Shown in pieces: positions 1 through 29,307 of a stretch of DNA of 33,497 nucleotides. How positions within the stretch are numbered: the first letter of the stretch is position 1; each line of letters opens with the position of its first letter. Origin of the DNA: Jimgerdemannia flammicorona (Eukaryota); contig RBNJ01000307.1 of the NCBI GenBank assembly GCA_003990765.1, forward strand, positions 1 through 33,497. The letters run 5' to 3'. Below the pieces are notes generated by a model. It was given only the letters and a program-made list of their open reading frames with translations. It ran no database searches and was not told the origin of the DNA. A program made the translations under genes and the position numbers.

Positions 1-1908
1 CGGTTTGGAGGCAATTCGAGGTCGCGACAGCGAAGGCGAGAGTCGTGTTGTCGAAGAGCTGTGAGCGGCAAGACATGGTGAGTAGATGGGATGTTGTATA
101 GATGCGGGTTGAACCTGGATTTTTTTTTCGTGTAAATAGGGACTGGGTGGGAAACCTCTGGTGTGAAGAAAATGGATTGGCGCGGCATGGACGCGCAAAT
201 GGTGGGTCGTGACACCTATCGTATATGTACGAATCTTAACGTGGGACCGAAGAATGTAACGAAATCTTTCAACTCATCAAATCCTCCTCTGTTCTCGCAT
301 ATCGTCGACCTCTGTTGCCTCGCCGCCCACTCCCGGATGCAGACCTAATCCGCCAAGCAATGCAGGACAAGGCGCACCTAACCGTGCCGGAAATGCCTGC
401 TTTGTATCCTTCTATTCTACTCTATCTACCCCAGATTTATTACTAGTATTCGATTAGGTATACGATATTTTTGTGAAGTCAGAGCATTTTCATATTTTAA
501 GGTATAATTTATAAAATTATATCGGAAGGCATCCTCGTTCATTGACTCACCTTTCTATCTCAACTTTCAATTCCTAGCCTCCCCAAATTCGTCATGACCA
601 TTACTCTCGGCATCTGTCTTTCGGGCACCACTGACAACTTCGCCCAGATCGCCGCCACCGTACCAGTGCGTCGGAGAATTTGATGCTTTTACGAGAGGTT
701 ACGAGGAGTTGAGGATGGGGCCGATGCGGGTGGATGTTTAAAAGGGGATGAGATTCGCTCATTGTTTGATGGAGATCGCTGGTTGGATTTGGGTTTTGTT
801 GTGGCCGCATGTTAATGTTCTTCGAATATAGTACGTGTGTATGATATTATTGGATGGTAGATGAGCGAGTATTTAGTTGTGAAGAGATCGAACCCTTTGC
901 ATTCCTCTTGGCTATTGAATAAAGGCATAGCTATTGTCAATGGAAGCCACACAAAATTTCCATAGAGATGTCGAGTCGTGGGAAAGTCAACATCCGATAG
1001 CCTTGTCGTCGTCAGTATCAATGGGAGAAAGGCCCGCAAAAAGACAAAAGCAATCCATACAGACCAAGGTATGTCCTTCAAGATTATTGACGTCTGATCT
1101 TACAATCCTTCATTAGCTTTTTCTGGTGTAGATCCGTCAGGTGTAGTAACGGCGAGAGCTTGACTGCGGTGCTGATGTTTTTGCTGGTGACAGGAGGCAG
1201 GCGTATCGGTGATGCTAGGATATTTGCCTAGAGATAACGAAGTGTTGCCGAGCTGCATTATATCAGTCAAATTGGGCGATAACGCAACCGATAAAATTTG
1301 GTTGAAAGATCGCGAACCGCCTTTCACTGGCTTTGACCTTCGACCGTCCCCTAGGCTGTACAAAGGCTGGTGCTCGATTATGAATATGGAGGCCAACGAT
1401 ACTTTTTAAAGACCTGTATTTCTCTCCTCCGTTGTGTAAGCATTGCTGCATGGTTTTCTGCGTAGGGGACGAGGGTGGTGGGGGCTTCGAACGAAGCATG
1501 GTAACATCTGTATGGGGTTGGTGTCTAGGTATGTGCGATAATGAGGATGAGGTGCGTACCATCTAGAAGACGGGTCACGGGAGGTGGAAATGGTAGCGCG
1601 ATGGGTTTGGGTCGAGAATAGAACGCAGATGTAAATATTAAATGGGTCATTTTCAACACCCGTCATTCTTGGATGAGGTTCAATAGTCATATATTAACCA
1701 TTTCTCAACGATTGCTTAGTCTCTTTACGGAACAGAAGATTAGCAGAACGGATATTCCATATATATACATTAGTTAAAGCAATCAATATTTCCATGGCCC
1801 ACAGATTATTTAGAGCACTCAGTTCCTTTGCCATGCCACTATTCAAGCTTAGTCACTCAACTTTACTTATCCCTAAGCATTATAATGTTAAAAGGAAGAT
1901 ATCAGCTT

Positions 1909-6800: not shown

Positions 6801-7065
6801 TTAATTAACAAATTGTATCACAGCTAGAAAGATTAATCTCAGGAAAAAGCCATATACCATGGTGGCTTTTGTCACCGGAAAGCTCACGCCATGTTGCGTG
6901 ATTGGTGAAGGCTGGGCTATTGAGATGAAGACAGCGTGTACTCGCAGGCAAACGCAGGGCCAAGTGTGGATTTTTTGGGGCTGCGCGTGTCAGAAGCGAT
7001 ACTAGAGCTAGAGCACCTCTCGACTGCGAGGCAGACCGCACCAGTGACGACCATGGTGGACGCAT
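3816..7065 (-). CDS. MSD1: Mitochondrial aspartyl-tRNA synthetase (bacterial-type AspRS), ~15 exons
   Basis: Arg/Ser/Leu-rich presequence [17 protein letters not shown]... Spliced exons give [122 protein letters not shown] and IRDVIAFPK. 14 GT-AG introns. Confidence 0.96.
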
Positions 7066-7091
7066 GGCAAAAATAATTTGGGTAACGTGTC

Positions 7092-7153
7092 TCGGTCAGT
7101 CGGTCAGTCGGTCGGTCGGTCAGTCGGTCAGTCGGTCGGTCGGTCAGTCGGTC
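7092..7153. repeat. (TCGG/TCAG)n compound tetranucleotide repeat in the MSD1-RPN2 divergent promoter
   Basis: tcggtcagtcggtcagtcggtcggtcggtcagtcggtcagtcggtcggtcggtcagtcggtc is about 15 TCRG units. Confidence 0.9.
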
Positions 7154-7325
7154 ATCGTATGATTACTCGTTTCAGCCAGTGACGTCAGGTGAGGGATTCG
7201 TCATCGCCTCCACGTTCAAAGCACCTGCTCTCGTGCATACGCAACCTTTTGGAAACAAACACAGACCGCCAAAAGTTCCCTTTCCTCGACGAGATAAAAA
7301 TATCGTATACTACCCACCAACGCAA

Positions 7326-8920
7326 ATGGTAGCCGCTCTCACTTCAGCAGGTACACCTCGGCATCTCCTTCCTTCACCAGTATCTCCAATGTCCTGACCA
7401 CAACCTGTCATTCTCTCCATTCCTCACAGGTGGTGTCATCGCGCTTCTGGACGAGGACCAGGAGGAACTTCAGACCTTCGCACTCCAGAAGCTAAATGGC
7501 CTGGTCGACCAGTTTTGGGCGGAGATTTCTGACTCCGTGTCGAAAATGTGCGTTTTATCAGCATCTCGAGCACATTGGGTCTCGGTTGGGTGCCGCAAGA
7601 AGGAAGGATCGGACGCGTCGTCGATTATAATTGAAGCGATTCAGACCGTTGCTTATTAATATTTGTGACCGAATTTTTTTTTGATAGTGAAATTTTGTAC
7701 GAGGACGAAGGGTTCCCGCAGCGAGAACTCGCTGCCCTAATTGCCTCGAAGGTAACGCGTTTCTTGCATCTTGTATTTCGTTGATAGCTTTTCTTGGGGA
7801 CAGAATTCGGGACATTGGGCTTGTGCAAAATTGAGACGGTGTAGTGGGTTTGAATATAAAAAGGGCTTTCTCGACATCCGTCGAAGACTATAATTCGACA
7901 CCGCCTCGACTAGCCGAATCAGCTCTCCAACTCGATTCATAACAATGGGACGTGGTGGGGATGCTTTACACCGTCTGCGGAGACTGACGCGGCCCTTTGA
8001 TCTACGCTGAACCCAGGTCTATTACCACCTTGGCGCATTTGACGAATCCCTCACCTTCGCTCTCGGCGCCGGCCAGCTTTTTGATGCGTCCGCCAAATCC
8101 GAATACGTCGAAACCATTATAGGTAAGTAAATTTCGCTATATATGGGTCTTGCATACGGCCCCACAATGTCATCTCCCTTCCTCACAGTCACCCTCCCCT
8201 TCATTCAGCCAAATGTATTCACAAGTACATCACGCTGCGCAGTAACCAATATGAGGAACCCGAAACGGCCGTGGAGATCGACCCGCGCTTGGAAGATGTG
8301 GTAGAGCGCATGTTCAAACGGTGCGAGGAAGATGGCGAATTCAAGCAGTCGATCGGCATCGCCCTTGAGTCGCGCCGCCTTGACATCGTCGAGCGTACCA
8401 TCCTCAAGGGCACCTCCCACGAGTTGCTTGCCTACGTTCTCGACGTCTCCATGACCCTCATTCAGAACCTCGATTTCCGGAACAAGACCCTCAGGCTCCT
8501 TGTCAGGCTCTTCAAGAACCTCCAGGAACCAGATTACGTCTCCATCAGTCAATGTCTCGTCCATCTTAACGATCCGGCGTCATGTTCAGAGCTGTTGAGG
8601 GAGCTGGTGAATAGGGGGGATGATGTAAGTGCTTTGTGGGGTTGGTTGATTGGCTTCTGGTAAAGTCTCCGCAGAGTATTGCGCTCCAAAGGAAAGAAAA
8701 GAAAAAAAAAATACATTGGCTTATATAAATTTCATAATTGTTTCCCACCAGCTGCACATCCTGATGGCTTACCAGATTGCTTTCGACCTGGAAGAGAACG
8801 CGACCCAGGATTTCTTGCACAAGGTTTCCAACGACCTGGCATCGGCACCCGCGGAGGAGAGGCCTGTAGACGGCGACGCGATGGATACGGATGAAGCGAA
8901 CAAGGTTGGTATGAATTAAC

Positions 8921-8954
<34 letters not shown>

Positions 8955-11900
8955 CGATGGAGGTATTTGTGTATATTGGCTATTCTGCATTTGTAATTTA
9001 CTTACGGATCTGGTTTCTGATGTGTTTAGCCGACCGACAAATTTTCCAAGATCAGATCTATTCTGTCCGGCGAGGAATCGATCAAGTTGCACCTTGAGTT
9101 CTTGTACCGGAACAATCATACCGATTTGTTGATTTTGAAAAACACAAAGGTTTGTGGTGTCTTGTGAACATTTGTGATGTGGGGACGCGACCATACGTTG
9201 TTGAACACGCCAATGTTGGCTGACGGTGACGCATAGATTTTTGGCATAGGAACGAGAATCGATTCTGATTGGATGTGCTGCGCTTATTCAATTTTACACT
9301 CCGTCATTCTATCTTAGAACGCCCTCGAGTCCCGCAACTCGGTATATCACTCGGCCGTCACCTTCGCCAATGCCTTTATGAGCGCCGGCACCACGAGCGA
9401 CGAGTTTCTCAGACAGAACCTCGAATGGCTCTCGCGCGCCACCAACTGGTCAAAGTTTAGCGCGACGGCCGCATTGGGCGTCATCCACAAGGTGAGCGCA
9501 ACATTTTTATTTCTAGATTTTGCTTACCAGCTCGCAATTCAGCAATGGTATCGTCGCTGACACTCTCGTTCATTCGCAGGGTCAACTCTCCCAGTCCCTC
9601 GCCCTCCTTGCTCCGTACCTCCCACAGGACGGCGTCAGCGGCGGTAGCTCCTTCTCCGAGGGCGGCTCCCTCTTCGCTCTCGGCCTCATCCATGCGAACC
9701 ACGGCGGAAGCGTGCTCGAGTACCTCCGGAATGCGCTCAAGAACACCCAGACCGAAGTACTGCAGCACGGCGCGGCGCTTGGGTTGGGCGTGGCGGGGAT
9801 GGCAACGGATAATGATGGTGCGTTGGGGGAAGAGGAGGGAGGAGGTGGTTGTTTGCTCGAGTGGATGGGCTGGGGAGTTTTTTTGTTTCGAATTTAACTG
9901 GGTTCGTGTGCTCTTTATTGTGGCGCTCAGATATCTACGTGGAGCTACTTACTGTCCTCCACAGCGACAGCGCCGTCGCGAGTGAGGCTTCGGGTTTGGC
10001 CATGGGTCTGGTCATGCTCGGCACGGCTTCAGCAAAGGCTATCGATGAGATGCAAGTGTACGCGCATGAAACACAGCACGAAAAGATTATTCGTGGTTTG
10101 GCTGTTGGCATGTCGCTGATTATGTATGGGAAGGAGGAGCAGGCAGATATACTGATCGAGAAGTTGTGCGGGGATAAGGTGAGGTTGTCGGGCATGATTT
10201 GTCATTGATCTGGTTTGGGGGCAGATGTATGCATTTTATTTCAAAATTTTGTACCAACACAACCTCCCCCCACTTTTTTTTTTTATTTTTTTTATCCCAG
10301 GACCCCATCCTCCGCTATGGCGGTATGTACACGGTGGCGATGGCCTACAGCGGCACGGGCAACAATAAGGCGATCCGGCGGCTGCTACACGTGGCCGTGA
10401 GTGACGTGAACGACGATGTTCGCCGTGCGGCCGTCACAGCCCTGGGTTTCATCCTGCTGCGCAATCACAAGCAGGTCCCCCGCATCGTCCAACTGCTCTC
10501 CGAGAGCTACAACCCCAACGTTCGATACGGTGCCACCCTCGCCCTAGGTATCTCGTGTGCAGGAACGGGACTCATGGAGGCTATTGAGCTGCTCGAGCCG
10601 ATGACTAAGGATCCCGTCGACTATGTCAGGCAGGGCGCGTTGATCTCGTTGGCTATGATCCTCATCCAGCAGACCGATGCTACGAATCCGAAGGTGCGAA
10701 GGTGGGCGGGGTAGATGGAAGTAAGGGAAGGAGTATGTACATCACGTGCTTCGTGCTAACGATGGTTCGTTTTGTGTCTCTGCAGGTTGGTACGGTACGG
10801 AAGTTGTACGAGAAGATTATTGGCGACAAGCATGAGGACTCGATGGCCAAGTTCGGCGCTGTTTTGGGACAGGGCATTATTGATGCGGGTATGATATCCA
10901 TATCAAGTTTGGTTTGCTTGGATCCTTATAGTCAGCCTCGTTCGGTGCGCGAGCATGTCATCCTCGCGCCACAGCATCTCACTGCCTTGTTTTCGCATCA
11001 TCAGGGGGTCGTAACGTCACGATTTCGCTGCTCTCGCGCTCGGGCCATGCCAACATGTCCGCCATCGTCGGCATGGCAGTCTTCACGCAGTTCTGGTACT
11101 GGTACCCGCTGACGCACTTCCTAAGCTTGGCGTTCACACCGACGGCTATCATTGGGCTGAACAAGGATTTGCAGGTATGCTGAGCTGTGACATTAATGCT
11201 GTGACTGTCTTTTATGGTGCCAACGCACAATTGCCATCTGCAATTTTTTTGTCGATCTCCCCACAAATCCTGTAACACAACCTAATTATTGGCAGATCCC
11301 GAAATTCGAGTTTATCTCCAACGCCAAGCCCTCGCTGTTCGCCTACCCGCCTACCACCAAGCCGCCAACAACGGCGGTGGTGGAGAAAGTGGCGACGGCC
11401 GTGTTGTCGACAACGGCCAAAGCGAAGGCGCGCGCCAAGAAGTCAGAGAAGGAGAAGGGCGCGGCGGAGCCGATGGAGACGGTGCGTTGGCGATGAGTTT
11501 TGGGTCTAGGTGGTGGTGTGTAAATCATTGCATGCTGATGAAATCGTTTGTGTTATTTGGTTTAGGATGAGAAGCAGGTAACCGAGGCTGAGGAGAGGAA
11601 GAAAGAAGAAGAGAAGGTATGTTTGTTGTTTTGTGGTTGCTGTCGTGCGGTTAGTTCCATACACCTGCCTGTTCCTTATTTAGCGCGTTGATCCACCATC
11701 ACCCGTGTAGGATGAAAAGAAAACGAAGAAGAAGAAGGAAGAGAACTTTGAGGTCCTGGAAAACATGGCTCGTGTGGTCCCTGGCCAGCTGAAGCACATA
11801 ACGTTCAAGGATGATTCGCGATACGTTCCCGTGAAAAAGGTATGCCGTTTGAATTCGACATCCGATGCCCGCGCATCTTCGCCCTACTGATGCACGTGTA

Positions 11901-12084
11901 ACGATTTTAACTCCCGCTCCCTCAGGGTGTTGTGGGAGGCATCCTAATGATGACTGACGGACGACCGGAGGATAAAGAGGACCTAATCATGCCGAGCGCG
12001 CCGTCAGCCGAGTCGGCCGGCGTGGCGAAGACAGAGGAGGAGGCGCCTCCGTTTGAGCCGTTCGAGTACCCGTTCGATAACTGA
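7326..12084 (+). CDS. RPN2: 26S proteasome regulatory subunit Rpn2/PSMD1, ~17 exons
   Basis: [71 protein letters not shown] repeats ([36 protein letters not shown]), FWYWYPL, C-terminal [12 protein letters not shown] (TGA 12082-12084). 16 GT-AG introns. Confidence 0.97.
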
Positions 12085-12509
12085 AAGGATGTTATTGGGT
12101 TGGGGGAGGGGGGCGCAGGTGATCTGTTTTTTCTCTTGTTCAAAGATAAGGGTGTGTCGGTCGAATGTCGGTGGGTAGGGATTTGAATGGTTATTAGACA
12201 CGAGGTATATTTTCTATTTGTATCGATTGCATAGGTCAATGTAGGGGTTGTACCCATGATTTCACATGTCTTGGTTATCGATGGTCTGACCGCTTAGCGA
12301 CGATTAATTTTGCACATGACTGCGAGTGCAAATTTCTCAGAAAGGGTCCGTGTGTGGGTGGGGCTGGAATCAAGATGGCGTTAGAAGCAGTACTTAAGCT
12401 GCGATCAACTATCCAAATCTCATACTCAGTTCTGATCCGTTGCCGCAAATACCGCCACTTTTGCACCTACACCCATATCCACACACCCCCACACACTCGT
12501 AAATACACT

Positions 12510-14393
12510 ATGGCCTTGCAGAAAGAGAGAATCGTCATTATTGGCTCTGGCAACTGGTATGTACCGATATCCCTGAAAACGCCAATTGCAAAGCCAATAT
12601 TTGCGGCCGTAAGCTAACTCCTCGTAACCACCAACCTCACTCCCAATGCCACAGGGGCTCCGCTATCGCCAAGATCGTTGGCCGCAACATCCAGGCCTTC
12701 CCCGACATCTTCGAGCGGGAGATCAAGCAGTGGGTCTTTGAGGAGGTCATCAACGACGAGAAGCTCACCGATATCATCAACCGCGAGCACGAGAACGTCA
12801 AGTATCCTTTTTGTGCTTGCCTTTGGCGAGCAGCCATAACATTGGTCTGCGTCGTTGGAAAACTGGGGTGTTAGGGTGACGATATTCGGTGGCTTGGCTG
12901 CCGTTGTGATCGAAGAACCGAAAGTAGAGTGGGTAGAATGTACGAACCCATGTTATCCTTAACACTCCTCACCTCGCACCGACTCGCTCCAACAGATACC
13001 TCCCTGGCATCAAGATCGCGGAGAACGTCAAGGCGGTCCCCGACCTCACGGACGCGTGTGAGGGCGCCACCATTCTCGTCTTCGTGCTGCCGCATCAGGT
13101 ATGTGTTTGCTTTGTGATTGTGCGCGTGTCGTTTCTGGGAATCTGTGGTTAATACGCCTCTGCGATGTGTGGGTGCTGTAGTTTTTTGACTGTTGTTTCT
13201 GCTCTCTCGGGTGTTATGATGTGGGTTATAGTTCGCCAAGGGCGTATGCAATAAGCTCAAGGGCAACGTCAGCCAGAACGCGAAGGGCATTTCTTTGATC
13301 AAGGTATGCGAATGGTTTATGAGTTTTATTACGTAGTGACTTGATTCGCTGGGGGGATTGAAAAGGCCGGAACAGCGGAACAATGTGCAAAAGTGATCCG
13401 CTTGCATAACAAAACAAAACCCCTGCTCCCCCTTTTCTTTCTCTCTTTCAACCCATCTCAGGGCGTTGACGTTTCCGAATCTGGCATCGTCCTCTTCTCA
13501 GAGGAGATTGCTACAGCGCTCAACATCCCGATGGGCGTTCTCAGCGGAGCCAACATCGCCAACGAGGTCGCGCTCGAGAAATTCTGCGAGACGACCGTCG
13601 GCTCGCGCATCCCTGAGCACGGCGACCTCTACTTCAAAATGTTCAACACTCCTTACTTCCGCGTCCAGGTTATTCAGGACACCGTTGGCGTCGAGCTCTG
13701 CGGTGCCCTCAAGAACGTCGTCGCTGTTGCCGCCGGTCTCTCCGACGGTCTCAAATATGGCGACAACACAAAGGCTGCCATCATCCGTCGCGGTCTGCTT
13801 GAGATGCGCAAGTTCGGAAAGACTTTCTTCGGCGGTGTCCGTACTGAGACCTTCTTCGAGAGTTGCGGTGTCGCGGATCTCATCACCACGTGCGCGGGCG
13901 GTAGGAATCGTAAGGTTTCGGAAGCGTTTGTCACGTCGGGCAAGGTATGTTATCTTGTGGAGGTGCTGCGAAGGGGAAAGGATAACCGGGGTTGTGCGAT
14001 TGGGTGTTTGTGGGTCTCGAGGCTATGTTGGTTGTACATGATGCTGATTGTGTCCTTTTTCGTATCGATTTCTGTTTGTATAGCCCATTGAAAAGCTTGA
14101 GGCTGAGATGTTGAACGGTCAAAAGCTTCAGGGCACGTCGACGGCGCAGGACATTCACAAGTTCCTTTCCACAAGGGGGATGTGCGAACAGTAAGTATCA
14201 CGCATTCAATTTTGTTGCGATTACGTTGTGCAGAGGTTGGGAATGGGTGATTTGTGCTGGATTTGTGTTGTTGAGCTTCTGGCGCTCACAATCTGTTCCT
14301 CCATTTGCGCAATCCAGGTTCCCTATGTTCACCACTGTCTACCGGATTATCTACGAGGGCCTGCCTTCCTCCAAAATCGTCGAGGATATCTAA
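12510..14393 (+). CDS. GPD1: NAD-dependent glycerol-3-phosphate dehydrogenase, 344 aa; exons 12510-12556, 12655-12801, 12996-13098, 13232-13303, 13462-13944, 14084-14190, 14318-14393
   Basis: [83 protein letters not shown]. Exon lengths sum to 1035 nt, in frame. Confidence 0.97.
12802..12995 (+). other. U12-type (minor spliceosome) GT-AG intron, GPD1 intron 2
   Basis: 5' splice site GTATCCTTTTT, branch box TCCTTAAC at 12956-12963, 3' CAG at 12993-12995. Removal restores the conserved HENVK-YLPG. Confidence 0.9.
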
Positions 14394-15102
14394 GCCACCC
14401 GTTGAAAGGGCAAATCGTAGACCAGGGTGTATAATTTGGAGCCCAAACGTAGATTGTTTTTCAATACACGAGATTTTTACTCATCTGCCTCCAAAAGATC
14501 TTCATTGATTGTACAAATATAAACCCCGTCGTTATTTTTTCTTATTTCCTTCACTACCTGTTATCTGTCTTTATCTCGATCTTCACTGTTCGAAGGAAGA
14601 ATAGAAGAATATTTTTCGAGCACTATCCTTTCCATCTCTCACGCCATGCGATGTCCTCGATACGGCATCGTGCAGACCGTGCTAAACTCCACGTGGAATT
14701 AGGTTTCCCACGGTGTCCTTAAGGACGCGTATCAGTTTCGATCGGAGACATACAGCGCGGCCTGTGCGCGCTGGGATCTGGGTGTGCAGAGGGCAGGGAG
14801 AGGAGTTGGAGCCAATGGAATGGACCAAGCGGTCGCCGATTATCAATCATGTACGGGCCATGAGTCATAGATGGTTGGCAAACCGGTTTCGCGATATATA
14901 TATATACATATATTTCATACAAAGCAGCATATAATTTCGCGATGACTGCATCCGACATGTTTTCGGAGCACAAGATGATCGGCGACCCTGCAACGTCGCA
15001 CCCGACTACCATATGACACGGAAAAATACATTTATGCGCCAACCCCATCAGCACATCAGCGGAGACCCGTGCCGAAGACCTAGACATTTGTAGGTTTTTC
15101 GG

Positions 15103-15138
<36 letters not shown>

Positions 15139-15301
15139 TCACAAAGGTTGTTGGCGGAGCTTGTAGTCTGGTAATATGGTGTCGGGTTTTCTTTCTTGAC
15201 GGTGTAATTGTATGTTATTGAGCCAATGTGCGAGGTTTTGGAAGGCGAGAAAAAGAATTCATGGTGATTAAATATAATTTAGGGCTCCTAAAATCACAAC
15301 A

Positions 15302-15373
15302 AGCAGCGTAGCGCAGAGGAAGCGCGCGGGGCTCATAACCCCGAGGCCGGTGGATCGAAACCACCCGCTGCTA
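15302..15373 (+). tRNA. Initiator tRNA-Met (CAT)
   Basis: Cloverleaf: acceptor AGCAGCG/CGCTGCT with A1:U72, D-stem GCGC/GCGC, anticodon stem CGGGG/CCCCG with loop CTCATAA, T-arm GGTGG-ATCGAAA-CCACC (A54, the eukaryotic initiator signature). A T-run Pol III terminator follows at ~15388-15394. Confidence 0.97.
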
Positions 15374-15754
15374 CAGTTTATATATGTATTTTTTATCCCC
15401 CTATCTATATTCTTACTTTTATACCTTTTATATTATTAATCCAGTAGATTCAATTGTATTTTCATACATATCAAATTCTTGATACGAAAATTCGTAGTAG
15501 TATATTGCAAATACGGATATCCAAACATCTCTGTGGTCTTTCTAGTTGACAAGGAGGACTTCTAAAAATTAAGAAGGATGATATTTCTGACTCATAATCT
15601 CAATGCCACTCCTGCGATGGGAAACAAAATGTTTTTTGTAAAATATCTTCTCTAGGTGACGCGGGCTAAGACCCGTCTTGGACATCTGTGATGACGGAAA
15701 AGGTTGCGAGATGAAGTGGTGGCTTTGGTGAAGAATCTATAACCTCGCACTAAT

Positions 15755-16598
15755 TCATGAATAATTCTTACCGGCATCATTGGATGGTAATATCGCTTTG
15801 CGAAGCAAGTCGTTCCTGGATGCAATCATTAGAGTGTTCGATAACATGTACAGAAACATAGGAGGCATTAGTAAAGAGCAAAAAGCGTAAATGTCAAACC
15901 TTTCCGTGATCATGGAAAATAATGCAGCGCATCACATTTCGGCCTTCTTTCCTTCATTACTATCCTGTTTCCCTCTTGCTCAAGCACCAACTATCTCATC
16001 ACCCTCCCTCCTCCGAGAGCATGGCAAATTATCTATTACCTCTGTTTGAAATCAAGAACCAGTCGGTTTAAGGAATCCATTGACTGAGGTATTACACGTT
16101 CGCCTTGATGCTGTCGAGTCCTGTTATTGGTGCAGCAAGCGACAAAGAGTGACATTAGCTTCACTCTTAACATCGCCGAGTGGATTTCGCTTCCAACATC
16201 GCGGAATGGAGAGTATATTGATCCGAGCGCATTCACAAACTTTCGATAGTACAAACAAAAATCGAAACGGTTGGAACGCACTCCTCTACAGATATCCCCT
16301 CTATAGTCAGCATCATCATATCCGTCGTCTCTCCGCCCATGTTGGTCGACAACGCGGCAGTCGACGACGCGACGGCCTCGACCCGGCACTCGGTAACCTG
16401 GAATAGCGGACTGTAGCTGTCCGCGCCCACAACCTCGGAGCAGGTGTCCGACAGGTCGACAACGATGCAGCCGTCCTTGGGCACCCCACCATCCAGCTCC
16501 TCGTCCTCAAAGACGTAGTGCACCACCGGGTGTCGGTGGGATTGCGCGGTGTGATCCTTGATGACGACGAATTGTGGGATGCTTGGGTTGGAAGACAT
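15755..16598 (-). CDS. Atg31-like autophagy protein (putative), 152 aa; exons 16598-16282, 16120-16040, 15815-15755
   Basis: Spliced product MSSNPSIPQFVVIKDH..HPVVHYVFEDE..CIVVDLSDTCSEVVGADSYSPLFQV..LTIEGIS..SLNRLVLDFKQRNDLLRKAIL.. Motif order matches Atg31 (P.xIxYIFED, VIIVxLD, C-terminal amphipathic helix). Exons sum to 459 nt. The gene model is firmer than the family call. Confidence 0.6.
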
Positions 16599-16971
16599 GG
16601 CGCTGGGGAGGTACGTGCGTTGCTTTTTACGCGAAGAGTAATGGCGACTGCAGTGGGCAGTCGGGTTCTGCGGACTCGCGCCATGTGACGTCTTGGCCAC
16701 GTGTTACAAAGGCTATGACATCATCAAACGTGGTGTCTTATGATTTACAAGTCAATCAAGAACAAAACAGACAGAGGGGATAGGGGAAACGAGAGAGTAC
16801 AACCTCAAACAATCTCTATATAATGGGATATGTACACTCTAAAGGCTCAAATGAGGAAACCAAGGTAATCGCCAAGATGATGGTGAGAAGCCAGAGAGGG
16901 GCTAATCGAAATACCCGAACAAGATGCACACATAAGCAACACGTAAGCTGCCGTGAAACATACCGCGGACC

Positions 16972-17010
16972 AAAAAGAAAAAAAAGAAAAAAAAGAGAAA
17001 AGAAAAAAAG

Positions 17011-17083
<73 letters not shown>
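16972..17083. repeat. Long poly(A)/A-rich tract
   Basis: About 70 consecutive A preceded by AAAAG-type units. The Lys/Phe ORFs here are artefacts. Confidence 0.9.
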
Positions 17084-17085
<2 letters not shown>

Positions 17086-17417
17086 GAGAGGACATCCCCG
17101 TTTCTGATCAATCCAGAAAAGAAACCAGACACAAAAAGATTAACATGATCTAATTGTATGGAGCGAAGCCTTGCCAATGACATATGCTAGAACAAATGTA
17201 TAGCGGGTAACATATGCAAGAGAACGGGGCGGAAAAGGGGAATGTGGACGAACAAGACGAAAGGTACGGTATTAGAATATAGACAATGACGATGAACCTT
17301 TGATCGAACATTAAGAAATGCTAGGTAATGTATGTACTATAAGATGACGAGCATTAAGCTTGATGCTCGAGAGATAAGGTGGAGGTGGACGGCGGGTAAA
17401 GAGGAAAACGTTCAAAG

Positions 17418-17449
<32 letters not shown>

Positions 17450-17714
17450 TTGCCAACATCAATACTGGACGGCAAAGGGGCAAAAAAATGGATTAATTTT
17501 GTGTCAAGGGGAAATTGGAAAAATGTAGGGAGAAACGAAAACAATGAACCGGATACATGATGCGATGTCCTAGGTTGGTTTTATATCGATCATTCCTACC
17601 ATTCTTCAAATATCCCAGCACACGCGGGCAAAAATTGTCTGTTGCTTTACCCATTATTTGCCCCTCCAACTTACCGCCGCCATTGCAAACGTGCGCATCG
17701 ATTCTGGAACGTCT

Positions 17715-20197
17715 TCACTCCGACACAACCATTGCCGGCATCATGAACCTATCTTTCTTATGCTTTTTCTTCTTCTTGATGGACGCCGTCCACGATGGCC
17801 TCCGATCCATCGAGGTATTCGAATGTCGATGCGTCCGGTGCACGTGCTTGTGGTGGTGGCGATGCGTGCGATCTTCCTCCCGCACGGCGTCGTCGTCGTC
17901 CTCAACGTAGTAAACAGGCTGGCCCCTCTCGTCAAACATGTCCGCCGAGCTCTCATACCGCGAACGCTTGTCCCGTTCCTGGTCTCGCTGATGGTGCTTA
18001 TGTTTACGCTTCGCCGATGACGATGAGGACGAAGCCTCAGGTGGTGGTGGTAGGAGCGCTGGCGGGAAGCGGGGGTCCGGGGGTGGGTAGTACGAGTAAA
18101 ATTGATGCGGAGTTGGAACTGGGGTCGGTGAGACTTCCTCGGAGGAGGATCCCCGGATGGATTCCGGCTCGTTATACGACATGTATGAGTCGCCACGGTG
18201 CATGTAAGGCGCGACTGATGTCGATGCCGACGGGGCGTAATAGTCGTGTTCGTAATGACCAGAATCGTAGTACATCTCACGCGGCCGAGATAACTCCTGG
18301 AGCAGCCCGTACTCGTACTCGCGCCCGTCGTACACTGGATCGCGTTCGTAGTCTCCGTAAACGGGCCGCGGCTCGTCCTCCGGCGGGTAGCTATACTGTG
18401 ACTCGTCTTCGTATTCGTATTCAGGTTCTTGTTCCGGGTATTGGTCGTATTCCCTGTCTCGGTCACGGTCGCGATGGCGCCGGTGGCGATGTGACCTATG
18501 TTCCCGGTGATCGAAGGCTGGCGGCTCGTGCATGAGCACCAAGTCGGCGTCGATGTCTTCGGAGGGGAGGCCTTGCGGGAGCGAACGTGTTGGGAGAATG
18601 CCCATCAAGGGATTAAGAGTTAAGGTAATAGTGATGAAGATGACTGGACTTAAATGGACCAAATCAAAAGTGCAGAAACGCATTTCACATTGCGCGAGAA
18701 GGATATTAATCATGAACGGTCTGATATTCGGGACATAATCCTCAGCGCCTTCCTCGTCCAGAGCTGTCTCGGATGTAACTGAATGAACACAGTAGAAACC
18801 ATGCAAAGCCGATTTAACGCCGGAAAAGACAATCGTATAAACACAAAACATTAGTATCAAAGCTTTGCCAACTACCTTTGGGGAACTTGAGTTTGATCAG
18901 CTCATTATGCAATGATGTTATTTTACGTTGAACATCCTCTAACATTGACCTTCGTAAGGCCAATCGACCAAACTACATATCGGAAATCCCGAATAAAGCT
19001 ATTCAGTAACCAAGGGGTTTCTTCTTTTCCTTCTTCTTTTGAAGGGCAGTGACTGCCTCATATAAAACACGATACAATAAAGCAAAACACGATACAATAA
19101 AGCGAATGAAATAACTAAATACCGCGAAATCATCAAACGCTTGCTTCTCAGCTGCGTGAAAGAATTTGCGTGTGGACACCCGAGTATACTCCAGGCGTGT
19201 TTGCGCGATCTGCAGCTTCCGCCGTCGTTTAGTTTCAATGTCGTCCAGCTCCTGACGGAATCCTGGGTGTGTTCCTTCTTCGACCTGTCTTTGCATGGTA
19301 TCTAGTTCAGCCAGTCTGTAAAGACGGAATATGGGATGTCCATAAGTAAATGGGCGATATATTCGCATGAATAAAGTGTGGGAAAGATCCAAAATAGAGG
19401 ATGCCAGGTGGATATGTATGAGAAGGTCTTTACCTCTCCTGTAATAGTGCTTCTCTCCGCGCTTTTTTCTCTTCCCTCGACAGCTTCGGTGCTGCCACCT
19501 CGACTTCGCTGTCGTCGGACTCGTCATATTCGGCGGGGTTCTTGGCCTTCCCTGGCAAGAGCCCGTTTGCCTTGGCCGAAGCTCCGCGACCGCCCTTCCG
19601 CCGCTTAGGAGTGTTGATCGTGTCGGGTGGAGGGGGCTCATTCTCGTTGGGTTCCGCCACGGGCGCAGTCAGTCTAGTGGACTTGCGGCGTCCGCCCGGT
19701 TGGCTTGGGTCCTCCGACGGCTCGGCCAGCGAGGAATCTACGGAGTGCGAGCGCGTGGGCATTCGGAACTCGGTCGCCTCGCCCGATTCGGACACGGGGG
19801 TAGACGATCGTGCGTGCTCCTCTGGCGGTTGTTGTGGGTCCGAGGGACCGGGTGAGACAGTGTTGGTGGTTGACGATTGGCTCGCCCGTCGGTTGGTGCG
19901 GGTATCACGCCGTGCGGTTTGGCGGACGGATGAGGACGTGGACGGCGAGGAGACTGTCGCTCTGGGTGTATTGGCCTGCTCCTGCGTCGGCTGCGGGTCC
20001 GAATCTTGGGTGGGAAGCGGCATGGGAGCTTGTGAATCGCTATCCCGACGAGCAGTAACTGCAGGGACGGGCGTAGAAGGTAGTGGGGGCGAAGGCTGTT
20101 GTGGGGTTGGCAAGGCCTGAGCCGTTGCTCGGGACCGAGTAGATATCCGGGGAGGCTTATTGGGCAGGCTGGGAGACCTCTCAGTCTTTGGCGGCAT
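17715..20197 (-). CDS. Sds3/Dep1/BRMS1-like Sin3-Rpd3L HDAC complex subunit, ~665 aa; exons 20197-19434, 19315-19123, 18972-18876, 18778-18707, 18586-17715
   Basis: Low-complexity P/S/T N-terminus, then an Sds3-like coiled coil (LQERLAELD..EEGTHPGFRQELDDIETKRRRKLQIA..AEKQAFDDFAFGRLALRRSMLEDVQRKI) and a GLPSEDIDADL motif, then a Y/E/H-rich tail ending in KKKKKHKK. Exons sum to 1998 nt. A 5'UTR intron is possible (donor ~20382). Confidence 0.75.
18587..18706 (-). other. U12-type AT-AC intron (120 nt, in frame, stop-free) in the Sds3-like gene
   Basis: On the minus strand: 5' splice site ATATCCTTC at 18706, branch box TTACCTTAAC at 18628-18619, 3' ...CCAACAC at 18587. Both ends are phase 1. The intron translation is hydrophobic and unlike the flanking exons. 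Confidence 0.8.
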
Positions 20198-22232
20198 ACT
20201 GGAAGGCTGCGGTGAGACGGAGAGGGAGAAGGGGGAGAGCTGTGAGTGGTTTTGGGGAGAGGGGGGTATATATGGGGGGAGAGGAGAGGTGCGGAAGAGG
20301 TGCTCAAAGCGAAAGAGCGGAAGGAAATGGAACATGATTTTTCAATCCACGCACACAACGGGCATTGCCTCCCGATACATACCTTCTGTTATCTCGACGG
20401 CGTTCTATGGGGTTTCGGCTGTGCAAAAATCCTGTATTCTGCAAAAAACGACAGTACGTTGTATAGCTCGAGGTATAGTCTATTTTCTTTGTGTTGGTTG
20501 CGGGCAATTTCCGATGGAGTGGAGGGGTTCAAGAGAGGAAAGGGACTGTAACAGCAACGAGCGGACAAATAATCTTGTCACTAATAAGGAAACCACATCT
20601 GTCCTCGCTGACATTTTTTTGATTGGGGACTTTGGCCATGATCATTGCGTCTGAAATCGATGCTTTCCGCGAACCCCCCAACCGACCGAACCCCGCTACC
20701 CATTTTCTGCTTGCTCACACACCTGCGGACCCCGTTCCGCGACCTCCTTGCCCCACCGTGCCTGTTATTCTGCACAACTACCGTTAACTTGCACCTCGAT
20801 ACATACATACCAAGATGGTTTCCTCGCGACCTCCACTGACTGTGCCATGCTATCACATGACATATGACGTGGAAGACAACATGCTTTGACGCGATTCATA
20901 TCGGTAAACGAGTGCTAGAACATCCCACTTTTCAAACATTCCGATTTAAACATAATGTAGTAACAATCGCGAAATCTACTAGCTTGGTTATGCTACGTTG
21001 GGTTACCAAAATATGACCACACTAGCATTTTTAGATCTCTTCAAAGTTATTAGACTTCTCCAAGTTAATGAATACAACTCCCGAGTACAACTAAGACGGT
21101 ATGAAACTTACGCCCACCTCGACACCCGCTTCGTGTTATTCCAGCACAGTGAAAGGGTTTGTAGCCTTGGAACTTGAGCTAACCATGTGACGAGCAAGGA
21201 ACGTGACGTAGTTCTTTTTGGTTTTGCCACGCACTGTTAAGGTATGATTCGTCGGTTCCGTAAGCGAACTTTGTGGGGAAGTATACATGAACGATTGTTC
21301 ACATGTGTGTCACATTACTTGAACTGTTGCCACATGTGCTATGGGCGCATATCATTCATTTTCCAGAAGTAGGTCAACAACCTCTTTGACGTGTGGTCAT
21401 CTCATGGACCTATTCTCCGTACTCTGAACTATCTAATCTAAGATGCCCCAGATCCGAATAATATATGCGTCTATTTTTTTATTAACCGATTCCCAGACCG
21501 GACTGCCCACCTCAACTGCCACGGTTTCGATCCATTTTGGGAACAGCTTAATGAGGGTTGCGCCTCGCCCGTCCCACCTAGCCACCCGTCCTTTAACGGA
21601 AGTGCGATCTCGGTGAATTCACACACGCATTAGTCGATTTCGGTCCTTGTGTATCCCCTGATGCATGCCACGTCAGAACCGCGTCCGTTATTACCATTGC
21701 ATGCCAGCCGGATATCCTTAAACGAGGTACGCCACCCACAAAATGTCCATCCATGCGAGTGATAGCGGTAATCGGTAAGAGTTGAGGTGGCGAGACCGCG
21801 TGAAACTTCATTTATTAGTTCGCCGTCCGGAGATCTGGATTCGGGCTACTTTGGAGACTATATTCCTTGTTTGGGAAAACTTATTGCCCCGACCACACAT
21901 GATATCCAAAAATTTAAGGTGATGTTGGGACACGGGGATGACGTCACATTGTCATTTACTATGTGTCGTCGAAACGAAATTTGAATGAGCATTGCGACAC
22001 TGCTACTATGGTCATCGACTTTGTCGCGGCATCGCTTCGCTATTAGTGACATGTGAATGCAGTTCGGTGTGGTCACGATCCAGGCTTTCTTCCTTTTTTT
22101 TTTTTTTTTTTTTTTTTCTCATTCTTTGGTTTTTGAATGAGGGTTTTCATCTGCAAAGACAACCAATGCCACTCTGTTTATAACTTGTGTTTCCTATAAT
22201 TCCATTCCGTGTTTCTTTCTAATTTGTAATTT

Positions 22233-23580
22233 TCACTTTTCCGCCATGACCGCACATGCAACAGACCCTAACGACATCCTCATATCTTCCCGGTCGACAT
22301 CATGACCTGGAAAAAAAGGGGGGAGGGAGACGCGAAACAAAATAAATAAAAATTAGAGTAAACCAACCCATTCAATAAAATCGCGCAAAATAAGTAAAAC
22401 ACACGTAAGACAACAGAAACAAAGTACTTACTGTCCTCCACCATTCCCCACCTTTGAATCTGTGAATTGACTTCTACCTGCGCAGCTCTCGCCGCCTCTT
22501 CAACCATGACTGCCCTTTTCACCAGCGCTAGCGCGACCAAGAAACTCTTGCTCGTCATGCAGGCCCTCTCGAACGCCGACAGTTCAATCGGATCCATCGT
22601 CTCCAACTCGAGCCTCAGTCGCGCCCTCGTCTCCTCCGGCTGCCGCGTCGCCACCATCCCCGTCGTCACCACAATCTCAATGTTGTGCTCGCGCCGCGCC
22701 CAGTCGAGTAGCGGCACCCAATCCCGCTCCTGCAGCGCCACGAGCGAGTCTGGGTACTCTTGGTGATAAAGAATCGTGTCTGTGTCGAGGTAACTGAGCA
22801 TGCGTGAAATAACTTCAGAGCGGACGGTCGGATCGTGGGTGGTGGCCGGGTGAAAAGCGTCTATGGCGCGGGAGACGAGGGAGGTCTGGTATGGAAAATA
22901 TAAATATACAACAGATCGTTCAGTTGAGATTTGGTGAATTAATAGAGTTCGTCGTACCGATTGGGCAAAGTAGTGAAACTTACCAGCGGCAGCGCGTGCG
23001 GTTTAAGAACTTTTGTCTGAGCATCCCACTCGGCCGCGAGCATCAGCGCCAGAGAACGTTTAGCTTTCGGGATCAACAACTTGTTCAGGCCAGGCGTCTT
23101 GATATGCCTGCCGTCCAACGCGATTGCGTATTGTCCTTTCATATTTGAAGGAGGCTAAATGAGAAAACCGGTAGAACAAAATCAGACGAGCATAGCAATC
23201 ATGTGAATGTACCATCAACCTCGGTTATCGAGGCTGTTTTCCAGAATCGGCGCATTGTTCGTTCAACCCCTAATCACACGAAAAAACAAACAAAAAACAA
23301 AAAAAAAAAACAAAGAAAAAATCAACCAATTAGTTTGAATATATTAAATTAAATACTGAACCAAACTTGGCGCATTCAATGCAAAAATGAACCAATTCAT
23401 ACTCTGCATTTGGGCCTCTTCCGCCGCAACCCCTCCCTGAGCAGCTGCCACTGTCGCCTCCGCTCGCTCCTGTGCAGTCTGGACGCTACTGCACCGTGCG
23501 ACGGATACAGTAAAAGGTCGTAGGGCGGTCAGAACAGCAGGATTGCCACGCAATAGAATTCTCGAAAGCGAAGTGCGCAT
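22233..23580 (-). CDS. ATP12: Mitochondrial F1-ATPase assembly chaperone Atp12/ATPAF2, 5 exons
   Basis: Presequence MRTSLSRILLRG.., then RRFWKTA, IALDGRHIKTPG, LAAEWDAQ..KPHALPL, YLDTDTIL, KSFLVALAL, EVNSQIQRWGMVEDSHDVDRED. An upstream in-frame ATG at 23637 is an alternative start. Confidence 0.93.
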
Positions 23581-23664
23581 GTTTCGTTTGAGGTACCGTT
23601 TTCTTCTGGTCGACCGCGTCAGCCACAAGGACGGCATTTCTGTTTATGTTTAAATAGGTCACGT

Positions 23665-23672
23665 TGATTGGT
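23665..23672. promoter_or_regulatory. CCAAT/HAP-type box (TGATTGGT) in the ATP12-MZM1 bidirectional promoter
   Basis: Matches the TNATTGGT HAP-complex consensus and lies near the middle of the 156 bp between the two ATGs. Confidence 0.4.
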
Positions 23673-23736
23673 CAAAATTTCCCGATGGCTGCTCAAACGA
23701 AACTATGCTGAGATTCATTCAAACAACGCATCCAAC

Positions 23737-24542
23737 ATGTCTACAGTAACAAGGTACACCGTTCTGAACGCCTACAAGAACTTGCTCAAGGTGCAGCGGA
23801 ATACCTTCAAAGGTATTATTTTTAAGCGTGGTTGTTGATATCCAATTTAGTAATAGCCCCTCAAGTAACACATTTGATCTCTTGCGCATTTGACACCCAT
23901 GTAGCTGATGTGGAAGCAATACAAGGTAATGTTGACGATTACTCCACCTTGTGTCTATTTTCTGGTAAAATTTACGTCACTCGATATTGGATGACAGTGG
24001 AGTTCGCAAAGTTTGCTGATTTGCCCTCCCTCTTCTGCCATAAACATCATCATTTGTAAAGCCGCGCGGCTAAGAACACATAGCGAATTTATGAAGTATC
24101 GTGATGAAACAAATCCCGAAATGATACAAAAGGTGAGTGGAATATTGGTTTTACGATCACGTTTTGCATCACGACTTCAATTGTCCGGTAACGATTATTT
24201 CTCACCATTACGTTTCATGGCTGCGCGCACAATTCGACGGCTCTCAACAGAAACTTGTATACGCCAACCAGATCGCCTCCATATTGGCCAAAAATATTGT
24301 TCAGGGCGTGAGAACGAACGACAACGACGAGACATATAGTGAGTTCTTCCCGTCTTTCTGTTAGGCCCATGCCACCTTCCTTCCGATGTTGAAAGTCATC
24401 GATTAACATCTCTTTTGCAGGACTGCGATTCAACCCAGAGACAGAGCTGGGCGACAACGACTCGATCAAGAAAAATCGGCACAAGCGCGATGCGGCAACA
24501 CATGAGCATAAGGATGGATGTTGTGAGAGCGGGAGCGCGTGA
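23737..24542 (+). CDS. MZM1: LYR-motif complex III (Rieske protein) chaperone Mzm1/LYRM7, 125 aa; exons 23737-23812, 23905-23925, 24062-24132, 24251-24338, 24421-24542
   Basis: VLNAYKNLLKVQRNTFKADVEAIQAARLRTHSEF..IASILAKNIVQG..YRLRFNPETELGDNDSIKK..GCC. The NIVQG and TELGDNDSIK motifs are typical of Mzm1. Includes a 21-nt micro-exon. Exons sum to 378 nt. Confidence 0.9.
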
Positions 24543-24950: not shown

Positions 24951-26375
24951 TCACTCAAGGGGTCGTAGTTTGATATAAAATTCCGGCGGGCATCTACAAA
25001 GGTTGGTCGGCTGCCATATATCAGTATATTCTTTGCCTGCATGTCGCCATAGCGGGTTCTTGCTTGCCAAAAAACAGTGCGTGAGCCCGTGACACCCGGA
25101 CGTAACGGCGTGCACGAAATCCTTGTCCATGCTTTCCCGCACCCTATCGCCACTCTCCGCGGAAAACGCGTACGTGATAAAAATATCGGTCAGGAACTGC
25201 CACCCACTTACATCCCTCACTCCCTGGCCCGACAGCTCGGCGAAGGCGTTGCGGATCGTCAGGTACCGAAGCCGGCGGGCGTTTGAGGCGCAATGGGCGA
25301 GGAAGGCGTTCGTGAGGACGCTGATGCCAGAAAGCTCGAGCAAGGTGAGGTATTGACACGAGTCGATGACATGGCACAGGTTGTGCTCGGTTATCTGCTG
25401 AACGGTGGGTCTCAAAGTTCCGATTTCGACATTGAGTCTGAGGGTTGTCAGATTTGGGCAATGGTCTGCGATGGTTTCGAGAATGAGGTCGTTGAAGAGA
25501 AGGCGGCAGTGGACAATGGTGAGTTCGCGAAGACGAGCGCCACAGTTGCGCACTCCTTGTTGAAGTTGGAGGCTCGTGATATTGTCAAGCCTCGAAAGCT
25601 GGATCTTGGACAGCTTAGGGAGAGCGTAGATGCCATCCAACGGAAATGGGACTTCGCCTCCAATTCCGCCGTTCAACGAAATTTTCTCAAGCGTGTCAGG
25701 CAGTTGCTGAAAGAATTTGGCACCGTCGTCGCCAGAGTAAGAGAGCCCGGTGAAACGAAGTGCCATGAGGTTTCCCATCAGCGGAACGACGGTCTTGAAG
25801 AAATTAGAGAACACGTTCGGCTGACTGCTATACCATTCGGGCAAATAAAACTCAATCTCCCTAATCTGGTTGGGCGAAAGGAGTTGTAAAATATTGGTGA
25901 TACCCAATGCTACTTCAGCCAGATCCGCCGCCGGTAGTCTAGGTCCGTCCAAAGCACGCAATGTCGGCGCTCTTAGGTCGATTCTTTTCACAAAAGCGAG
26001 ATGATCAACACCGGTTTCGACGGCTCGGGAGTGTGAATTAATCAGGAAGCTGGCCAGACGCTTCAAGGTCTCAGATCGAGTGGCTTCTTCGTCGCGCCAG
26101 AAGTCGAGCCTACACCAAATCAGAGGAAGGGCAAGGGAACGCCACTGGTGGGAGACTTGCGAGCATGACAGTAGGTTACTATGAATTTGGTGGTGGTGGA
26201 AGATGCCGTAGTCGATGCCTGGGTAGTGGCTGAGCAAACGAAAGATACGTTCGAGGACTTCAGGAGGAAAGGGTAGTGGTCGCTGAATCCTTTGCCGTTT
26301 ACGTCCTATATCGCCCTCAGGGTTTGGCGGAAGGTACTCCAGTGAACCGGTACGAAGGTTGGACATTTGGGGCAT
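24951..26375 (-). CDS. F-box / leucine-rich-repeat (RNI-like) protein, intronless, ~474 aa
   Basis: F-box LPFPPEVLERIFRLL..LLSCSQVSHQWRSLALPLIW followed by cysteine-containing LRRs (IADHCPNLTTLRL, IDSCQYLTLLELS). First ATG is at 26375. Confidence 0.85.
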   Translation of the reverse strand: MPQMSNLRTGSLEYLPPNPEGDIGRKRQRIQRPLPFPPEVLERIFRLLSHYPGIDYGIFHHHQIHSNLLSCSQVSHQWRSLALPLIWCRLDFWRDEEATRSETLKRLASFLINSHSRAVETGVDHLAFVKRIDLRAPTLRALDGPRLPAADLAEVALGITNILQLLSPNQIREIEFYLPEWYSSQPNVFSNFFKTVVPLMGNLMALRFTGLSYSGDDGAKFFQQLPDTLEKISLNGGIGGEVPFPLDGIYALPKLSKIQLSRLDNITSLQLQQGVRNCGARLRELTIVHCRLLFNDLILETIADHCPNLTTLRLNVEIGTLRPTVQQITEHNLCHVIDSCQYLTLLELSGISVLTNAFLAHCASNARRLRYLTIRNAFAELSGQGVRDVSGWQFLTDIFITYAFSAESGDRVRESMDKDFVHAVTSGCHGLTHCFLASKNPLWRHAGKEYTDIWQPTNLCRCPPEFYIKLRPLE

Positions 26376-27086
26376 GAGGAGAGCTAGGTCGCGTTTCGCC
26401 AAGTCACAATGAGGTCCCGTCACGTGTCATCCCAAAAATTCAAAAGTCCCATAGTTGCGATGGTGCCGAAGAGCAACATTGCACCACCAGATTTAAAATT
26501 AACCTGTTTCTTTGGCCTCCTCGGCACCAACTCTCCGCACGGCTTGCCCAATTTTTCGGAAGTCTGGCAGCGCTTGTCAGGAACCTTAGAACTGACAGAG
26601 AAAATTAGCCAATAACTGACTGTGTGGAAGATCATGTGCCAAATCATGTGCAAGATCCCGTGAAATGACGTGTAGATTACTTACTGTCGCTGTCACGGAG
26701 TGCTGAACCCGGTCCAGACAGAACATCTATATTCTGATACAGCCTACCAGGTAACTAATTTGGCACAGGTTAGTACTTATTAATGTGGCCTAAATCTAAC
26801 TTCAACTTACATCTAGTCCATATCTAGTAGTATGATAAAATGAAGCCAGAAACTTCTGAGATATTAAAATATATCTAGCATACAGTATGGTAAATTTTTA
26901 CCAAAAAGACTCAGAATGGGTTGAACCTTTGAGACCAAAAGCCCAACATCTTAATAGGGCAACCAACTCTCTATAAAAGGTTAAGAAAAATTTGAGAACT
27001 CAGCTTAAGCTCTCTAATATTTTTATGTTCCTCAATATCTTTATACTCAGTATTCTTAAGATTTCAAGATATATATATTTTTGGGA

Positions 27087-27124
27087 GTTTTTTTTTTTTT
27101 TTTTTTTTTTTTGTTTTTTTTTTG

Positions 27125-27165
<41 letters not shown>

Positions 27166-27188
27166 GTTTATTTCATTTTTTTTTTTTT
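27087..27188. repeat. Long poly(T) tract
   Basis: Interrupted T-runs spanning about 100 nt. Confidence 0.9.
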
Positions 27189-27309
27189 GTATTTTCTTAT
27201 CTGTCTTTTTTGTACATCTTTTAATTACTGTTTAATTTGCACATTTTCTAGTTTTCTGTTTCACAATAACTAGTCAGATTGTTAAAAATATTCAGGCCAA
27301 ATTTTGGAA

Positions 27310-29243: not shown

Positions 29244-29307
29244 GAATAGATTCAGAATAGATTTAGAATAGATTTAGAATAGATTTGGAATATATTTGAA
29301 ATAGATA
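29244..29307. repeat. 11-bp tandem repeat (GAATAGATTTA-like, ~5.5 copies)
   Basis: gaatagattca gaatagattta gaatagattta gaatagatttg gaatatatttg aaatagata. Confidence 0.8.

Follow-up and report, generated by a model that had tools for sequence, protein, structure and literature searches.

Two U12-type introns in a fungal DNA window and the distance from branch box to 3' splice site in Mucoromycotina

In this work we asked what two U12-type (minor) introns, which sit in two genes 5.6 kb apart on one stretch of fungal DNA of 33,497 nucleotides (nt; the whole stretch is called the window below), tell about how far the U12 branch box lies from the 3' splice site. The first of them, intron 1, is of the GT-AG kind and sits in a gene for NAD-dependent glycerol-3-phosphate dehydrogenase (GPD), intron 2 is an AT-AC intron in an Sds3-like gene, and in each of them a box can be read whose last A lies 33 nt from the final base of the intron. 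The textbook optimum for this distance is 11–13 nt, older classifiers required 10–20 nt, and later scans reach 38–45 nt (published values are given throughout as they stand in the parts of the sources available to us). An earlier, sequence-only reading of the window had assumed this conventional spacing, correctly according to the literature, and had proposed that the lineage carries an expanded set of minor introns with an altered 3' splice site geometry. The present analysis points to a narrower answer: both introns are genuine minor introns, and in Mucoromycotina the distant-box layout is probably the usual one for GT-AG minor introns, AT-AC minor introns there having the classical 11–15 nt.

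The two introns and their branch boxes

Intron 1 is 194 nt long (12802..12995, plus strand) and lies in phase 2. Its borders are given by RNA: contigs from four public runs of four studies, each run holding parts of the stretch, were placed on positions 4500-24400, and contigs of 4/4 runs contain the joint 12801->12996, which skips 194 nt with GT..AG ends and has no positional ambiguity. Two of the runs are single-organism runs in the form of contigs, whose RNA nature is presumed; the other two are root metatranscriptomes that hold small shares of the window. Runs X3 and X4 contain just 0.08 of the sampled words, and show six further joints among those listed besides that of intron 1. The minor-type 5' splice site GTATCCTT (12802..12809) follows an exon ending in ..CAA, which lacks the A-2 G-1 that is tied to use of the major spliceosome in human. 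The branch box TCCTTAAC (12956..12963) is perfect (8/8 of TCCTTRAY) and is the sole box of the intron with <=1 mismatch; from its last A (12962) to the intron end CAACAG (12995) there are 33 nt. The spacer in between (12964..12995) is C-rich, with 66% pyrimidine, and contains no AG until its terminal CAACAG; the first AG downstream of the box is the one used as 3' splice site. Because there is no second box with <=1 mismatch and no AG between box and 3' splice site, the 33-nt distance of intron 1 can be taken as solid at the level of the sequence. Folding of the spacers gave no structure that would shorten the distance in either intron (z -0.76 for intron 1, z -0.87 for intron 2).

Intron 1 is the second of six introns in the GPD gene (12510..14393, plus strand), which matches PF07479 (expectation value 4e-34) and PF01210 and was aligned to fungal GPDs. 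The coding exons are 12510-12556, 12655-12801, 12996-13098, 13232-13303, 13462-13944, 14084-14190 and 14318-14393, and the intron splits the conserved motif NVK|YLPG in phase 2. A metagenome scan with a 13-sequence GPD alignment returned 80 loci of <=62% identity, mostly full-length and uninterrupted, in all of which a search for a donor plus a box found 2 irrelevant sites only; GPD1 and GPD1L were not found in the minor-intron tables of Olthof et al. 2019 (PMC6717393). Around the GPD gene many transitions and two 9-nt deletions set the contigs of run X2, and in part those of X3 and X4, apart from the window (divergent sites at 12454, 14407 and many single ones between 12471 and 14432), with the intron 1 joint unchanged; these contigs look like those of related strains or species.

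Intron 2 (18587..18706, minus strand) is an AT-AC intron of 120 nt in phase 1, in frame and free of stop codons. Its minor-type 5' splice site ATATCCTT (18699..18706) follows an exon ending in ..TTA. Contig pieces of runs X1 and X2 stop exactly at 18586, and the X1 record has 362 letters between the pieces that end at 19434 and start at 18586. With the minus-strand GT-AG introns 19433-19316, 19122-18973 and 18875-18779 removed, the exons measure 193, 97 and 72 nt, a total that reaches 362 only with the end of the last exon at 18707; therefore intron 2 is taken to be spliced at these borders, on indirect RNA evidence. The existence of two U12-type introns with these positions and motifs, as claimed by the sequence-only reading, is thus borne out by the sequence and by RNA, for intron 2 indirectly. 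The same cannot be said of the identical 33-nt spacing. Intron 2 has a distal candidate box, ACCTTAAC (18619..18626, last A at 18620), 33 nt from the intron end CAACAC (18587), and a proximal candidate box, CCCTTGAT (18604..18611, A at 18605), 18 nt from that end; each has 1 mismatch and the two score equally (7/8). The proximal box had been overlooked; the claimed distance is solid for intron 1, with its single perfect box, and in intron 2 depends on which of the two boxes is used. The intron 2 spacer is 62% pyrimidine.

The Sds3-like gene (17715..20341, minus strand) has exons ..-19434, 19315-19123, 18972-18876, 18778-18707 and 18586-17715, with a 5' end that is not fixed. Its family assignment comes from a match of PF08598 to the single exon 19314-19123 of 64 amino acids (expectation value 2e-05), which at 25.2 bits against a cut-off of 25.4 is borderline because just one exon was scored. 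The exons flanking intron 2, compared in order to place the intron on the Sds3 profile, had no Pfam match, and no public protein model of the gene was matched among proteins of 621-2000 amino acids. Since intron 2 is in frame and stop-free, read-through or retention would lengthen the product by 40 residues, and gene prediction could overlook the intron and give the Sds3-like protein 40 residues that do not belong to it. Minor introns are listed for SUDS3, BRMS1 and BRMS1L in both human and mouse (supplement of Olthof et al. 2019, PMC6717393), the minor intron of SUDS3 being intron 7 (de Wolf et al. 2021, PMC8280824). Intron 2 resembles those of SUDS3 and BRMS1L in its putative Sds3-like family and in being of the A-type (ATATCC); because these three genes carry minor introns in mammals, it hints at retention of intron 2 rather than gain.

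Taken singly, the motifs occur at chance level in the window (RTATCCTT 4 times vs 2.75 expected, CCTTAAC 3 times vs 3.66 expected). The pairing of a donor with a box, not the single motifs, is beyond chance: 2 pairs in which a box follows a donor on the same strand within 30-400 nt are present, and among 2000 dinucleotide-preserving shuffles 0/2000 had two such pairs and 79/2000 had one. In the RNA contigs 50 joints were counted over 4500-24400, in agreement with the figure of 2 in about 50 introns given by the sequence-only reading, and of the 19 introns with fixed and examined borders 2 are U12-type and 17 have U2-type donors. Both U12-type donors match the 8-nt consensus /RTATCCTT, unlike all 17 U2-type donors, and a TCCTTRAY box with <=1 mismatch is found in 1/17 U2-type introns. 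The termini are matched within each intron, GT..AG in one and AT..AC in the other; the phases, 2 and 1, fit the known bias of minor introns against phase 0, and the exon ends AA and TA are without A-2 G-1. The conventional distance to the 3' splice site, 10-20 nt with an optimum of 11-13, is not found in intron 1 and applies to intron 2 only if the proximal box is the one used. Genes for U11, U12 and U6atac have been reported in Bifiguratus (PMC11347168), and U12 introns are known in Rhizopus and Phycomyces (PMC2846911). Introns 1 and 2 are therefore, on account of their donors, their boxes, the absence of A-2 G-1, their non-zero phases and the minor small nuclear RNAs (snRNAs) and U12 introns of relatives, genuine U12-type introns of a known kind with a modest variant at the 3' end.

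Box distances in related fungi

The source of the window is Jimgerdemannia flammicorona or a near-identical fungus of the Endogonales (Mucoromycotina), because one of its open reading frames (ORFs), coding for an F-box protein, has a protein of J. flammicorona as its sole match, with 100% identity across 82% of the length of the ORF, and because the nearest relatives of the GPD exon are from Umbelopsis and Bifiguratus (76-77%); the matches in root metatranscriptomes fit this origin. U12 introns of the same subphylum, supported by expressed sequence tags (ESTs), are listed with 10-nt exon flanks for Phycomyces blakesleeanus (17 entries) and Rhizopus oryzae (3 entries) in additional file 2 of Bartschat & Samuelsson 2010 (PMC2846911). 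They share with the introns described here the RTATCCTT donors and the CCTTRAC boxes, and in each we took the best box and counted by hand how many nt separate its branch A from the intron's final base. Three Phycomyces A-class entries whose donors are not ATATCC (ATATATAT, ATTTCA and ATATCTAT) were omitted.

The two classes of introns differ in these species. In Phycomyces the four GT-AG introns with a clean CCTTRAC box have distances of 30, 28, 31 and 24 nt, and the four with a CCTTCAC or CCTTTAC box 25, 43, 23 and 24 nt (weaker nearer boxes lie at 19, 11, 14 and 15 nt); the two GT-AG introns of Rhizopus, in S13 paralogues and orthologous to one of the Phycomyces introns, have 23 and 23 nt. 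The AT-AC introns with a ATATCCTT donor in Phycomyces (n=6) have 12, 12, 11, 14, 11 and 11 nt, and that of Rhizopus (n=1) has 15 nt. The GT-AG introns thus range over 23-43 nt (10/10) and the AT-AC introns over 11-15 nt (7/7), without overlap. For the 8 GT-AG and 6 AT-AC introns of Phycomyces the Mann-Whitney test gives a p value of 0.0023, and for the four clean-box GT-AG introns against the same 6 a p value of 0.013. In all GT-AG introns of the two species (10/10) the first AG after the box is the 3' splice site, and their spacers are T-rich. Intron 1 is like them in its box at 23-43 nt, its pyrimidine-rich spacer and its use of the first AG; it differs in that the published introns are in other genes (e.g. 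ribosomal protein S13) and have T-rich spacers, where those of the window are C-rich. Intron 2, at 18 or 33 nt, lies outside the 11-15 nt of the AT-AC members.

This separation of 10/10 from 7/7 leads us to propose that the long spacing is a trait of the GT-AG class in Mucoromycotina and not a 33-nt ruler, and it looks like a trait that is not special to this genome. The altered 3' geometry proposed by the sequence-only reading would then survive in a narrower form, for GT-AG minor introns, and not for AT-AC introns; the fixed 33-nt spacing is not supported, given the equal box at 18 nt in the AT-AC intron of the window and the short spacing of AT-AC introns in relatives. As AT-AC introns of relatives are short-spaced, use of the proximal box of intron 2 would be at least as likely as use of the distal one, and with tandem boxes at 33 and 18 nt the identical 33 nt of the two introns is probably in part a coincidence. 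In intron 1, GTATCCTT would be the pairing site of U11 and U6atac and the perfect TCCTTAAC box that of U12, and the second step would use the first downstream AG, 33 nt further on, across the C-rich spacer; the acting spliceosome, the branching A and the choice of AG are what we infer here. Both introns being of known type, it is the split between subtypes that is worth pursuing.

Several points weigh against this interpretation. The comparison covers two species with small samples counted by hand, in which the S13 introns are orthologues between Rhizopus and Phycomyces and hence not independent, and when every nearer alternative box is taken instead (19, 11, 14 and 15 nt, in 4/8 Phycomyces GT-AG introns) the p value weakens to 0.016. 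Branch points are predicted from sequence motifs, and the Rfam scan of the window found no minor snRNA. Even the 18 nt of intron 2 exceed the 11-15 nt that A-type introns show in relatives, and its distal box, in which AA is followed by C, is the one that we take to be the better match for pairing with U12. Finally, in both introns the last base, G in one and C in the other, is immediately preceded by CCAACA (12990-12995, plus strand; 18592-18587, minus strand), a likeness that pure coincidence leaves unexplained. In the supplement of PMC2846911 a CCAACA ending is found in none of the Phycomyces or Rhizopus U12 introns, and one oomycete GT-AG U12 intron ends in CCAACAG and one AT-AC intron in CTAACAC. 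The same supplement holds a GT-AG U12 intron of the Phytophthora L31 gene whose box, TTCCTTGAC, is conserved in two species, 58 nt upstream in P. sojae by our own count and ~55 nt in P. infestans by a rough count.

The available part of PMC2846911 contains no comment on box spacing that we could find. In the literature accessible to our search there was no statement of a difference in box distance between GT-AG and AT-AC introns and nothing on minor introns of Jimgerdemannia, two points on which supplementary figures S4, S20 and S21 of PMC11347168 and the deposited data of PMC10639083 could bear.

Alternative explanations and consequences

Intron 1 could instead be excised, in full or in part, by the major spliceosome or by mixed components, as a 'minor-like' or 'hybrid' intron in transit from U12 to U2, with TTAAC in the role of a U2-type branch site and U2AF binding the C-rich spacer as its polypyrimidine tract. 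TTAAC does fit YTRAY, matches to which are found in 10/17 U2-type introns of the window 9-49 nt upstream (median ~26), a spread that includes 33 nt, and the U12 spacers, in a type of intron expected to have no polypyrimidine tract, fall with 62-66% pyrimidine inside the 53-91% span of U2-type introns in the window. In human, U2AF1 is bound by some minor introns and by many of the minor-like ones, and some minor-type introns have major-type 3' features (Olthof et al. 2024, PMC11347168), conversion from U12 to U2 is more frequent in the GT-AG subtype, and Bifiguratus, placed under Endogonales, was scored with 0 minor, 45 minor-like and 41 hybrid introns despite its U11, U12 and U6atac genes (PMC11347168). 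The 5' end argues in the opposite direction: following ..CAA, GTATCCTT makes a poor site for U1, it resembles none of the 17 U2-type donors, and A-2 G-1 is missing; a perfect 8/8 U12 box beside a perfect U12 donor is unexpected by chance, and the same architecture with perfect donors is present in 10/10 G-type introns of relatives that have minor snRNAs. We hold this explanation to be unlikely.

An about equally unlikely one, close to what the sequence-only reading proposed, is a remodelled minor 3' end, fixed at ~33 nt in both subtypes, in which the distal CCTTAAC boxes are used, CCAACA perhaps acts as a 3' element and the repertoire is enlarged. The same 33 nt and the common CCAACA in both introns, the AA-C form of the distal box of intron 2 and the occurrence of two confirmed U12 introns in ~50 joints within 20 kb all speak for it, as does an unverified candidate at 404-577 with a box at 32 nt, which is without RNA or homology support. 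Physarum polycephalum offers a precedent for a lineage-specific change of the minor 3' end, its transformed system having a box changed to TTTGA together with the U12 snRNA, 9-12 nt from the 3' splice site (10.1101/2020.10.12.336362); there the box is altered, here the box is canonical and the distance long. A fixed distance accords poorly with the equal-score box at 18 nt in intron 2, and in relatives the A-type introns have 11-15 nt (7/7), the G-type introns vary over 23-43 nt and none of the tails examined ends in CCAACA. The occurrence of minor introns in Sds3-family genes of mammals makes it possible that intron 2 is old. As to the repertoire, 2 in ~50 joints is unusual for a random window, but density cannot be judged from a single window that was flagged for holding two. 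The expanded set that the sequence-only reading named for Rhizophagus is on record: genome-wide counts are 205 minor introns (0.27%) in Rhizophagus irregularis and 249 (0.55%) in Basidiobolus meristosporus (Larue & Roy 2023, PMC10639083), a survey in which J. flammicorona is among the species according to a label in a supplementary figure, and our own division of the counts tabulated in PMC2846911 gives ~0.06-0.14% for the EST sets of Rhizopus and Phycomyces. The fungus studied here is like Rhizophagus and Basidiobolus an early-diverging one with, presumably, a working minor system; theirs are genome-wide counts, ours comes from one window.

It is likewise unlikely, in our judgement, that nothing here is specific to the lineage, intron 1 being an outlier from the tail of a normal distribution and the pattern in relatives an artefact of small samples. 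The samples are small indeed, classifiers already admit boxes at 8-38 nt, up to 40 nt or up to ~45 nt upstream, and placement of the box at 10-20 nt has been called 'not always necessary'. The complete separation of G- and A-type introns in Phycomyces (8 vs 6, p 0.0023), with which Rhizopus and this window agree, is not what such an explanation predicts.

The reading that we favour, a distant box as the usual layout of GT-AG minor introns in Mucoromycotina, can tentatively be extended: there, and perhaps also in further groups other than animals and plants, minor introns of the two subtypes may have unlike 3' ends, a major-like one in G-type introns and one with 11-15 nt in A-type introns, a proposal that we consider possible but short of probable. 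The G-type 3' end, in which a U12 box far upstream is followed by a pyrimidine-rich spacer and the first AG is used, would possibly be read by U2AF-like factors. In human cells A-type and G-type minor introns differ in their dependence on a factor, CENATAC (PMC8280824), and this difference and the commoner conversion of GT-AG introns both fit a major-like 3' end for the G-type. The available parts of PMC8280824 and PMC11347168 show that subtypes are handled differently in human cells, and a difference in box distance by subtype was not found in them.

If this is true, G-type introns would be a standing intermediate on the way from U12 to U2, and the subtype-specific 3' geometry a natural system for the study of minor 3' splice site choice and of this conversion. 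The models by which minor introns of early-diverging fungi are counted were trained on animal and plant data. Should GT-AG boxes in this group routinely lie 23-43 nt upstream, tight windows and polypyrimidine criteria will misfile such introns, and fungal densities and histories of loss and gain will be biased; animal-trained classifiers would then under-call fungal minor introns, Bifiguratus being maybe one case. A minor count of zero in Bifiguratus is what would be expected if such introns fail animal-derived criteria, which is a hint in this direction.

Other donor-like sites and the surroundings of the two genes

The candidate GT-AG minor intron at 404..577 (plus strand), read from the sequence only, has a GTATCCTT donor and a TCATTGAC box with 1 mismatch, 32 nt ahead of the first AG. 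Its interior is AT-rich and an in-frame alternative donor, GTATTC, is present at 446. The flanking ORFs gave no Pfam match, and their sole relative is a protein of 87 amino acids, 84% identical over a query of 31 amino acids, whose upstream sequence differs so that the junction is uninformative. The donor-like sites at 5037, 1217, 14383, 30577 and 31102 were rejected, as they match RTATCCT only and are without coding or strand support; the string ATATCCTTAAAC (21712-21723, plus strand), which is donor-like and box-like at once, has nearly no RNA cover and is probably a chance match.

The neighbours of the two genes in the window are RPN2, a class II aminoacyl-tRNA synthetase, ATP12, the F-box protein and a tRNA-Met. 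The Rfam scan of the window found one tRNA and no snRNA gene; the tRNA-Met (CAT anticodon, 15302-15374, plus strand) lies between the GPD gene and the next gene. Over the final 7 kb (26000-33497), where a 172-amino-acid ORF (30750-31268) had no Pfam match, the GC content falls from ~50% to 27-36%, which may indicate repeat-rich or degraded DNA. Long homopolymer runs of A or T are present at 15092-15146, 16967-17094 and 8913-8960; these repeats were excluded from read placement, and one of them translates to a run of lysines.

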